From assembly GCF_003334355.1 (NCBI RefSeq), contig NZ_QOWP01000077.1: a DNA stretch of 2,235 bases; one strand, 5' to 3'. This stretch comes from Escherichia coli (lineage in GTDB: Bacteria > Pseudomonadota > Gammaproteobacteria > Enterobacterales > Enterobacteriaceae). The position numbers and the translations under genes are program-made. Under the pieces are notes generated by a model that worked only from the letters and a program-made list of their open reading frames with translations, did not search any database and was not told the DNA's origin. Positions within the stretch are counted from its first letter, which is position 1. Each line of letters opens with the position of its first letter. This document shows, piece after piece, positions 1 through 2,235 of the stretch.

Positions 1-159
1 AAACCAGACGGGTTAACGGCAGCAAAGAACCTTGCAGAGGCGTTCGAGCATTATAACGAATGGCATCCGCATAGTGCACTGGGTTATCGCTCGCCACGGG
101 AATATCTACGGCAGCGGGCCAGTAATGGGTTAAGTGATAACAGGTGTCTGGAAATATAG
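1..159 (+). CDS. insD: IS2 transposase OrfB (InsD), C-terminal 52 codons; 5'-partial at window edge
   Basis: Open frame 1 from position 1 to TAG at 157..159; the translation carries the [18 protein letters not shown] motif. Confidence 0.8.
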
Positions 160-170
160 GGGGAAATCCA
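130..170 (+). repeat. IS2 right terminal inverted repeat (inner boundary approximate)
   Basis: Terminal sequence ends in GGGGGAAATCCA at 170, as recalled for the IS2 right end; it overlaps the OrfB stop codon. Confidence 0.65.
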
Positions 171-244
171 ATGAACACCTCCCTCTCGAGATTTTTAAAC
201 AAAGCACATTGAAAAATAAATCTCTCTGGGATTGAATTATTCAT
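171..244 (-). pseudogene. 5' stub (24 codons, MNNSIPERFIFQCALFKNLEREVF) of a small gene, probably ymgC, interrupted by IS2; the frame reads on into IS2 with no stop before the window edge
   Basis: Minus-strand ATG at 244..242 preceded by a good Shine-Dalgarno (GAGG, plus 250..253, 5-nt spacer). The position, downstream of ariR on the same strand, is where ymgC lies in the K-12 ycgZ-ymgABC operon. I cannot confirm the YmgC N-terminus from memory. Confidence 0.4.
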
Positions 245-356
245 GTCAGCCTCGTAGAAATATTAACCCAATAAAATTATGCTGTGTATAGTCTAAAGCG
301 ACAGACAAAAATAAGATGAATGAGTTTTCTATAAACTTATACTTAATAATTAGAAG

Positions 357-623
357 TTACATATCATCAGCTGTGTATCGCAACACGATTTCCAGTGTTT
401 TTCTAATCACATCAGCTTTGAGAATATCACTTGTTGTTTCCAGGGAGTGTATCAGACTTAAGATAATATTTTTATTATTAACATTATCGCCTGAAAGCAT
501 TAAATTGGTGACAGCCTGCCCTAACACTGCTGACTCTTCTTCTAACAAATTACCCGAACTGCGAAAGTAACTTGCTAACGCTTTATCAGTTATTGCATTA
601 TGAATTGTAGTATCTTCAAGCAT
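357..623 (-). CDS. ariR: AriR/YmgB, small regulator of acid resistance and biofilm (88 aa)
   Basis: Complete 88-aa ORF with Shine-Dalgarno GAGAGG (plus 629..634) 5 nt upstream of the ATG. Length, sequence and operon position match the recalled E. coli AriR. Shares the L-G-x-x-V-T...N...K...L-E pattern with the ycgZ product. Confidence 0.9.
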
Positions 624-651
624 GGTAACCTCTCATCTTACTTATGAAATT

Positions 652-924
652 TTAATGTATTCTGTTTATTTTCTTACCATTGAACATACTTTTATTGTCA
701 GCTGTCGCTGTTCTTCGGTTTGGCCCTCCTGAATCACTATTGCTAAAATCACGAATTATGCTGTCAATTAAATCGCGTCGGAAAGCATCTTCCTCAGCCG
801 ATTTCATTACGAGTAATTGCTTAATAAGAGTCTGCAATGAAAAATTTATCTTCATGCGCAGTATCTGGAGCACCGCCTGGCCAGTAATTTCATATTTTAT
901 ACGTTCATTATCAGATGTCTTCAT
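652..924 (-). CDS. ymgA: YmgA, small connector protein of the ycgZ-ymgAB operon (90 aa)
   Basis: Complete 90-aa ORF lying 42 bp downstream of ycgZ and 28 bp upstream of ariR on the same strand. Contains a GQAV motif shared with AriR. Own Shine-Dalgarno is weak (GAAG); a 4-codon overlapping upstream ORF is described in findings. Confidence 0.88.
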   Translation of the reverse strand: MKTSDNERIKYEITGQAVLQILRMKINFSLQTLIKQLLVMKSAEEDAFRRDLIDSIIRDFSNSDSGGPNRRTATADNKSMFNGKKINRIH

Positions 925-966
925 AACGACTTCATAGCTAACCTGTTAAATAATCAGGCTGTTGCA

Positions 967-1203
967 TTATTCAAAAAGCAACCCAATTAGTGCATTATAA
1001 TGTTTCTGTTCCTCTTCCCCTGTCGCTTGTTCCAGTCGGCAAAGAAGTTTGGCACAAAGCGACTTTCGACTCAGATTACGTCCATCTTTCAAAATCTCAG
1101 TCACAATTTCCCCGAGAGTTTCCTGCTGAGTAGGCAAGTTAGCTTTTGCAAAGTAACGAGTGATTGCTCCCGCAGAATCTGAAGTCACTGAATTTTGATG
1201 CAT
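967..1203 (-). CDS. ycgZ: YcgZ, first gene of the ycgZ-ymgA-ariR operon (78 aa)
   Basis: Complete 78-aa ORF with Shine-Dalgarno AGAGG (plus 1211..1215) 7 nt upstream of the ATG. Clear similarity to AriR (YF...LGEIVTEILKDGRNLSRKSLCAKLLCRLE against [29 protein letters not shown]). Divergent from bluF as in K-12. Confidence 0.9.
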   Translation of the reverse strand: MHQNSVTSDSAGAITRYFAKANLPTQQETLGEIVTEILKDGRNLSRKSLCAKLLCRLEQATGEEEQKHYNALIGLLFE

Positions 1204-1259
1204 GCTACGCCTCTGTTAAAAATGTTAATCAATGTGAAGTGAGGTAACAATAGCAAACT

Positions 1260-1278
1260 TGTACGAAATATGTGTACA
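1260..1278. promoter_or_regulatory. Inverted repeat TGTAC-N9-GTACA, candidate repressor operator
   Basis: TGTAC at 1260..1264 and GTACA at 1274..1278 are reverse complements separated by 9 bp, about 57 bp upstream of the ycgZ ATG. Confidence 0.25.
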
Positions 1279-1297
1279 GAATGATAAATTAATTTTT

Positions 1298-1316
1298 TGC
1301 AATTAGTGCTAATGCA
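1298..1316. promoter_or_regulatory. Imperfect inverted repeat TGCAATTAG-TG-CTAATGCA, candidate operator
   Basis: Left arm TGCAATTAG (1298..1306) and right arm CTAATGCA (1309..1316) are reverse complements apart from a single-base indel. Confidence 0.25.
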
Positions 1317-1516
1317 TATAAAACAATGTGTTATGATAAAAAATATTGCATCATTTAACTGACAATCTATACAAGATTTTTCGCCAACTAGTGTTCAACT
1401 TTTTCCATTTTTTATCAATGTAAAGAAACGGTTATGTTTTGGTATTAAAAGAAAGACACAAGAAGATATGTCTGTTACCGTCTTACTCTCGCCTCACCCA
1501 TTACCCTGGATTGTTA

Positions 1517-2116
1517 ATGCTTACCACCCTTATTTATCGTAGCCATATACGTGACGACGAACCTGTCAAAAAAATCGAAGAAATGGTTTCGATAGCAAAT
1601 CGCAGGAACATGCAGTCTGACGTAACAGGGATCTTACTGTTTAATGGTTCTCATTTTTTCCAGCTTCTGGAAGGTCCGGAAGAACAGGTTAAAATGATAT
1701 ATCGGGCTATATGCCAGGATCCACGGCACTATAATATTGTTGAGCTGCTGTGCGATTACGCGCCTGCTCGCCGTTTTGGCAAAGCGGGAATGGAATTATT
1801 TGATTTGCGCCTGCACGAGCGAGATGACGTTTTACAGGCCGTATTCGACAAAGGCACATCAAAATTTCAGCTAACTTATGATGACAGAGCGCTACAATTT
1901 TTTCGTACTTTTGTCCTTGCAACCGAACAATCAACCTATTTCGAGATCCCTGCCGAAGACTCCTGGCTTTTTATCGCTGACGGATCTGATAAAGAACTTG
2001 ATTCCTGTGCCCTTTCACCAACTATAAACGACCACTTTGCCTTTCATCCTATTGTCGATCCCTTATCGCGGCGGATAATCGCTTTTGAAGCCATTGTGCA
2101 AAAAAATGAAGATTGA
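1517..2116 (+). CDS. bluF: BluF/YcgF blue-light antirepressor, N-terminal 199 aa only (intact BLUF domain, EAL domain cut off just after its signature); truncated by IS3 insertion, likely pseudogene
   Basis: MLTTLIYRSHIRDDEP...GILLFNGSHFFQLLEGPEEQV is a BLUF photoreceptor signature. FHPIVDPLSRRIIAFEAIVQ corresponds to the start of an EAL domain, but the ORF stops 5 codons later at the TGA (2114..2116) that is the first triplet of an IS3-type terminal repeat. Recalled full-length BluF is about 403 aa. Start placed at 1517 rather than the track's 1439. Confidence 0.85.
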   Translation: MLTTLIYRSHIRDDEPVKKIEEMVSIANRRNMQSDVTGILLFNGSHFFQLLEGPEEQVKMIYRAICQDPRHYNIVELLCDYAPARRFGKAGMELFDLRLHERDDVLQAVFDKGTSKFQLTYDDRALQFFRTFVLATEQSTYFEIPAEDSWLFIADGSDKELDSCALSPTINDHFAFHPIVDPLSRRIIAFEAIVQKNED

Positions 2117-2152
2117 TCCTACCCACGTAATATGGACACAGGCCTAAGCGAG
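2114..2152. repeat. IS3-type terminal inverted repeat (about 39 bp from recall; inner boundary approximate)
   Basis: Starts with the TGATCC typical of IS3-family ends (5'-TG...), abutting bluF codon 199. Confidence 0.65.
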
Positions 2153-2235
2153 GTTCTGGTTTTCAAATTGTTCCGGACTGAGGCCGCCACACCAACTGTG
2201 CCGCCGCCACCGATTGTAATCACATTCGATATAAT
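2144..2235 (-). CDS. IS3-family transposase OrfB, C-terminal fragment; 5'-partial at window edge
   Basis: Minus-strand frame open from the window edge to TAG (plus 2146..2144); the translation ends ...YNRWRRHSWCGGLSPEQFENQNLA. Confidence 0.7.
   Translation of the reverse strand, partial: YIECDYNRWRRHSWCGGLSPEQFENQNLA

Follow-up and report, generated by a model that had tools for sequence, protein, structure and literature searches.

The bluF gene of the Escherichia coli DNA analyzed here is interrupted after codon 199 by an insertion of IS3, and the resulting allele is, with high probability, a loss-of-function allele. Together with an insertion of IS2 in the neighboring gene ymgC, it very probably reflects the ordinary decay, driven by insertion sequences (IS), of a dispensable module. 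The window, that is the whole stretch of 2,235 nucleotides (contig NZ_QOWP01000077.1), is a piece of the E. coli chromosome bracketed by IS2 on the left and IS3 on the right. Among complete genomes, that of E. coli PSS-12 (NZ_AP027697.1, locus L001) comes nearest to the window here, and its bluF is intact with 403 codons. Positions 172..2113 of the window differ from PSS-12 by a single mismatch, at position 251. The features of the window are as follows.

1..171, plus strand: right end of IS2, with one mismatch (position 163) to the PSS-12 copy
1..156, plus strand: C-terminal 52 codons of the IS2 transposase, the translation ending ...CLEI*
157..159, plus strand: stop codon TAG of the IS2 transposase
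up to 171, plus strand: last bases of the IS2 terminal repeat, ...GGGGGAAATCCA
172..176: ATGAA, 5-bp target site in ymgC duplicated by IS2 (one of the two copies)
172..244, minus strand: 5' stub of ymgC, about 24 codons, translated as MNNSIPERFIFQCALFKNLEREVF and then IS2-derived residues
357..623, minus strand: ariR (ymgB), intact, 88 aa (list of open reading frames and annotation of the near-identical PSS-12 locus)
652..924, minus strand: ymgA, intact, 90 aa (list of open reading frames and PSS-12 annotation)
967..1203, minus strand: ycgZ, intact, 78 aa, with which the operon repressed by BluR begins (list of open reading frames and PSS-12 annotation; operon structure from PMC3509220)
1204..1516: divergent control region of ycgZ and bluF, with the ycgZ promoter and its BluR site and the bluF promoter (placed according to PMC3509220)
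1517..2116, plus strand: truncated bluF reading frame, 199 native codons and a TGA supplied by IS3
1520..1792, plus strand: BLUF domain, complete, residues 2-92 (Pfam PF04940, E = 4.5e-24, on the full-length protein)
2033..2113, plus strand: remnant of the EAL domain, residues 173-199 of 173-388 (Pfam PF00563, on the full-length protein)
2087..2101, plus strand: degenerate EAIVQ motif, residues 191-195 (motif named in PMC3509220)
2111..2113: GAT, target triplet, a second copy of which is expected beyond the other end of IS3 (on the basis of contig L013)
2114..2235, minus strand: right end of IS3, its terminal repeat beginning TGATCCTACCCACG at 2114 (121/122 identity to annotated copies)
2235..2144, minus strand: 3' end of the IS3 transposase gene including the stop, C-terminus ...YIECDYNRWRRHSWCGGLSPEQFENQNLA*

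The bluF sequence at 1517..2113 is identical, with zero mismatches, to the first 597 nucleotides (199 codons) of bluF in PSS-12, and the first mismatch falls at 2114. From this base onward the window (2114..2235) is identical at 121 of 122 positions to two annotated IS3 copies of strain Res13-Lact-PEB20-37-A (L002). The same segment matches IS3 in thousands of E. coli records (E ~1e-59), where it is annotated as IS3-like element IS3 family transposase. Both the identity to IS3 and a terminal inverted repeat opening with 5'-TG are found in it. The TGA at 2114..2116 that closes the bluF stub is made up of the first three bases of this terminal repeat. The first-pass annotation had placed the end of bluF identity at 2113 and the beginning of IS3 at 2114, with the stop codon of the stub supplied by the terminal repeat, and the comparisons with PSS-12 and with the annotated IS3 copies bear this out. 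Its description of a 199-residue product with an intact BLUF domain and linker, the reading frame of which stops shortly past the EAL signature, also agrees with our analysis: the residues are identical to those of intact BluF, the Pfam BLUF domain spans residues 2-92, and EAIVQ (191-195) is followed by KNED and then by the stop.

The transposase gene of IS3 lies on the strand opposite to bluF, and the window carries the last 29 codons of its second open reading frame. The near-identical IS3 copy in L002 is 1258 bp long and is annotated with a programmed frameshift. The sole base of 2114..2235 that differs from the annotated copies, the G at 2158, changes the C-terminus of the transposase from ...FENKNLA to ...FENQNLA. 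On the other side of the stub, the bluF promoter and start are untouched, and the control region at 1204..1516 shows zero mismatches to PSS-12; the transcription start sites have been placed 36 nucleotides upstream of ycgZ and 30 nucleotides upstream of bluF (PMC3509220). A consensus scan for a promoter-like site created near 2114, that is an outward IS3/bluF hybrid driving antisense transcription or ycgZ, found none.

The second insertion in the window shows the terminal repeat and the 5-bp target duplication of IS2. The duplication, ATGAA, flanks both ends of the PSS-12 copy and is present once in an intact ymgC (L003), the product of which has 82 residues. In PSS-12 both halves of ymgC are annotated as pseudogene pieces and the IS2 copy as IS3 family transposase, while in other records the same IS2 sequence is annotated as IS3-like element IS2 family transposase. 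The frame of ymgC continues through the antisense strand of IS2 for at least 81 codons and runs off the left end of the window. Two single-base features were seen in this part of the window, namely a G at 163 in the IS2 terminal repeat (GGGGGAAATCCA vs GGGGCAAATCCA in the reference) and a C at 251, in the spacer between ariR and ymgC, which is the single-base difference from PSS-12. Since PSS-12 shares the IS2 site in ymgC and has an intact bluF, the insertion of IS3 into bluF would be later than that of IS2 in this lineage, provided that the two IS2 copies go back to the same event. The operon ends with ymgC, and the separate interruption of this gene by IS2 is part of the usual decay, through insertion sequences, of a module for environmental sensing that is dispensable.

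The probable consequence of the IS3 insertion was considered on the basis of what is established for intact BluF. In blue light BluF binds the MerR-like repressor BluR and frees the ycgZ promoter from it, and bluF and bluR are transcribed independently from separate promoters (PMC3509220). The window retains ycgZ-ymgA-ariR, present and intact; bluR lies beyond the window and is present past the far junction of a related public sample (L013). Of the two parts of this BLUF-EAL anti-repressor, the N-terminal BLUF domain is present in the stub together with the complete linker, and a complete degenerate EAL domain is absent. The stub retains 27 of the approximately 216 EAL residues. With residues 200-403 it lacks 189 of the 216, including positions the mutation of which weakens the antagonism of BluR. 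In an alignment with BlrP1, the active homologue from Klebsiella pneumoniae (PDB 3gfx, E = 4e-97), FEAIVQK stands opposite the canonical FEALIRS; the degenerate EAIVQ motif was named explicitly by Tschowri et al. 2012 (PMC3509220).

We propose that a copy of IS3 inserted into the chromosomal bluF gene between codons 199 and 200, antisense to bluF, and that the 3-bp target GAT would have been duplicated on insertion. With the leading TGA of IS3 in frame, translation would end at once, and the predicted product would be a protein of 199 residues in which the BLUF flavin domain and linker are complete and the EAL domain breaks off after 27 residues. A large share of the surface with which BluF removes BluR from the ycgZ promoter belongs to the EAL domain, so that this bluF allele has most likely lost its function, and ycgZ-ymgA-ariR would stay repressed by BluR in light and dark alike. 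No polar effect on bluR is to be expected because bluR has its own promoter. The regulatory outcome and the stability of the stub are predictions from sequence.

The first-pass annotation had stated that BluF needs its EAL domain to act on BluR and, marking this as inference, that the truncation should uncouple the operon from its control. The latter is a reasonable expectation; the former turned out to be a simplification. Point mutants in the EAL domain antagonize BluR less, and the purified N-terminal domain of BluF did not bind BluR in vitro; in two-hybrid assays, however, both domains of BluF contribute to binding, and the isolated N-terminal part contacts BluR and MlrA (PMC3509220). A null allele would therefore be the most likely outcome, and in view of these two-hybrid contacts the stub may conceivably have some residual or altered activity.

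A look-up with the exact 199-residue product retrieved further junctions at the same site. At the bond equivalent to 2113/2114, L003 (10598..) and L008 carry the left end of IS3 in the opposite orientation, and L004 (10598..) carries an ISEc52/IS911-like end; over 1.9 kb the former differ from the window at 6 positions and the latter at 5. Judging from these backgrounds, the junctions, that of the window included, appear to represent at least three independent insertions of IS3-family elements at one bond. Two other IS3 copies in the orientation of the window lie close by. One (L037, at about 2079) follows bluF codon 193, 18 bp upstream, and the other (L002, 4868..6125) lies 75 bp upstream with the duplication CTT on both sides, in a complete genome that also has IS3 in ymgC.

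It is tempting to explain these events by the hypothesis that IS3-family elements insert preferentially at GAAGAT|AGCC in bluF, which would then be an insertion hot spot. The three different junctions at one bond in different backgrounds (window; L003/L008; L004) are in line with it, as are the same-orientation IS3 copies 18 bp and 75 bp upstream and a deletion of 4 nucleotides at the same spot in Shigella sonnei. The look-up with the exact product, however, can find events at this codon only, so that the sampling is biased to this site, and the collection searched is very large, so that coincident matches are not very improbable. Neither of the alternative same-bond junctions, with the IS3 left end or with the ISEc52/IS911-like end, occurred in any of the 5,426 complete E. 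coli genomes, and the same is true of the junction of the window. The three thirds of bluF were also searched in these genomes. Large disruptions were found in 32 genomes for the first, BLUF-coding third, in 14 for the middle third and in 10 for the last third; the middle third is not enriched, and a regional IS hot spot was rejected. A resemblance of the target to the ends of IS3 was rejected as well, since the best match, 10 of 12 bases, was reached by 25 of 200 shuffled sequences and is no better than chance. We therefore regard a target preference as rather unlikely, though worth keeping in mind, and take the three junctions at one bond as a mild curiosity.

It is worth considering another interpretation of the truncation itself, in which the function of BluF is changed and not abolished. 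If the 199-residue stub were made, bound flavin and contacted BluR or MlrA, in a light-dependent or a dominant manner, it might, in the manner of the natural short BLUF proteins, sense blue light on its own, or it might interfere as a dominant fragment, instead of being a null product. The two-hybrid interactions of the isolated N-terminal part with BluR and MlrA and the untouched promoter and start of bluF would be compatible with this. In addition, structures of a BLUF-only construct of the homologue BlrP1 have been solved (148 aa, PDB 2kb2), and a 198-residue stub in S. sonnei ends at the same codon. On the other hand, the purified N-terminal domain showed no binding of BluR in vitro, the 27 orphan EAL residues at the end of the stub are unlikely to fold, and S. 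sonnei is without the target operon ycgZ-ymgA-ariR, which fits decay and not a new function.

The distribution of truncations along bluF also argues against a stand-alone sensor. Each third of the gene is in one piece in approximately 4,900 of the 5,426 complete E. coli genomes. Approximately 490 of these genomes gave no match to any third, that is, the gene is absent from about 9% of them. When stubs with their last residue at codons 190-205 were looked up by exact sequence, the contig counts were uneven, namely 27, 23, 10, 43, 48, 5, 31, 1, 14, 2 and 2. At the level of DNA the stubs near codon 199 have mixed causes, namely E191* and E198* nonsense mutations, an A7-to-A5 frameshift, another IS3 and plain contig ends; in all, nonsense, frameshift and IS events were found at bluF codons 174, 191, 193, 196, 198 and 199. 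The E191* (GAA to TAA), E198* (GAA to TAA) and A7-to-A5 alleles occur in separate lineages (L014-L017, L019-L024 and L027-L030) with stubs of 190-197 residues, and the frameshift lies in a run of A at the window-equivalent positions 2100..2106.

As a control block, stubs of 49-58 residues, which end inside the BLUF domain, were looked up in the same way. A stub of 51 residues was found on 41 contigs, one of 55 residues on 58 contigs and one of 58 residues on 97 contigs, and some of these contigs are of Mb size. Convergent truncation at the boundary of the BLUF and EAL domains was rejected, since the causes are mixed and the stubs inside the BLUF domain are equally abundant, with up to 97 contigs. 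There is thus no sign of selection for a BLUF-only product, because disruptions are most frequent in the very third that encodes the BLUF domain (32 genomes vs 14 and 10). The bluF gene is broken again and again along its whole length, as is characteristic of genes that are dispensable. We accordingly consider a working stand-alone or dominant stub to be very improbable, and a null allele is retained as the preferred reading.

The reality of the allele was examined in public sequencing runs. A look-up with the predicted product of the ymgC-IS2 edge retrieved a contig of 2002 bp (L057, Logan ERR4578542), which is reported for 5 samples. This contig is 100% identical to positions 141..2142 of the window and spans both of its IS junctions. 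The far junction was searched with the predicted protein in which the left end of IS3 reads in frame into the 3' part of bluF, and this protein is on record; for a product one residue longer than predicted there was no record. The contig concerned (L013, Logan SRR3823860) starts with ...GGGTAAGATCA|GAT|AGCCCATCAGCC. The remainder of bluF follows, with bluR, which is intact, and ycgX after it, and the 2,797 nucleotides past the junction are identical to PSS-12. The allele therefore recurs in public runs. The 199-residue product is in NCBI already, as a partial or hypothetical E. coli protein, and no mention of an IS insertion in bluF or ycgF was found in the literature and supplements searched.

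A 3-bp duplication and the remaining 3' sequence of bluF had been expected on the far side of IS3, and both were found in the related sample, the duplicated triplet being GAT. Since L013 bears the matching far junction, with the IS3 left end, GAT, bluF and bluR in this order, the event would be a simple insertion of IS3 with the 3-bp duplication GAT. As the window ends within IS3, the GAT duplication and the downstream gene order are those presumed for its own genome from this related contig. The absence of the junction of the window from all 5,426 complete RefSeq E. coli genomes might point to an assembly chimera, or ...KNED might be the natural end of a short BluF variant, but the break falls exactly on the tip of the IS3 repeat, the 2002-bp contig, reported for 5 separate samples, is identical, the reciprocal junction with its 3-bp duplication is present in another sample, and the annotated intact protein has 403 residues with each third of its gene unbroken in approximately 4,900 complete genomes, so that these readings are refuted and retain practically no probability.

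We conclude that bluF has become a pseudogene here through a routine IS insertion, at a locus where decay is frequent. For annotation, both bluF, interrupted by IS3, and the nearby ymgC, interrupted by IS2, should be entered as pseudogenes, and the locus should not be described as a gene for a short BLUF protein. The allele adds to a pattern in which the blue-light and cold module of BluF, BluR and YcgZ/YmgA/AriR is broken repeatedly and in many ways, both in E. coli and in Shigella, as would be expected if certain lifestyles can dispense with the module. No long-standing question becomes newly testable through the allele. Strains that bear it could be used as naturally occurring bluF mutants in studies of biofilm formation and Rcs signaling.

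Several natural BLUF photoreceptors, such as BlsA of Acinetobacter, PixD and BlrB, consist of a BLUF domain and a C-terminal extension and have no enzymatic output domain. These natural short proteins evolved C-terminal helices that bind partners. A PDB hit of our search, 2byc, is labelled as a blue-light receptor of the BLUF family. The stub resembles such proteins in having a BLUF domain without an enzymatic output domain. Unlike BlsA, PixD and BlrB, however, it is an accidental truncation that ends in 27 orphan EAL residues, with nothing pointing to selection. The full-length counterpart of the stub is BluF (YcgF) of E. coli K-12. The stub agrees with intact BluF at each of its 199 residues and has the whole BLUF domain and linker, and the divergent ycgZ-ymgA-ariR neighborhood is kept; residues 200-403 are present in the full-length protein and missing from the stub.

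The YcgF/BluF stub of S. sonnei (198 aa, for example in strain 53G, HE616528.1) is likewise BLUF-only, and its native sequence ends at the same codon as in the window. It was found on 840 contigs, annotated as blue light and temperature regulated antirepressor. Its cause is different: a deletion of 4 nucleotides (AGAT/GATA) at the spot where IS3 lies in the window, together with an in-frame deletion of 12 nucleotides, and no IS lies within the gene. The 4-nucleotide deletion may be the trace of an IS or a coincidence. In S. sonnei 53G (L061, 2501..3097) an IS1 lies 60 nucleotides upstream of the bluF start and ariR-ymgA-ycgZ is missing. The IS3 copy in bluF of strain Res13-Lact-PEB20-37-A (NZ_CP062853.1) shares with that of the window the element, the gene and the orientation. 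It is flanked by the 3-bp duplication CTT, and its flanks are annotated by RefSeq as the halves of a bluF pseudogene. The two insertions differ in the way in which the protein ends: the copy in NZ_CP062853.1, 75 bp upstream, lies out of frame and adds to the stub a short tail encoded by the IS, whereas the copy in the window provides an immediate in-frame TGA.
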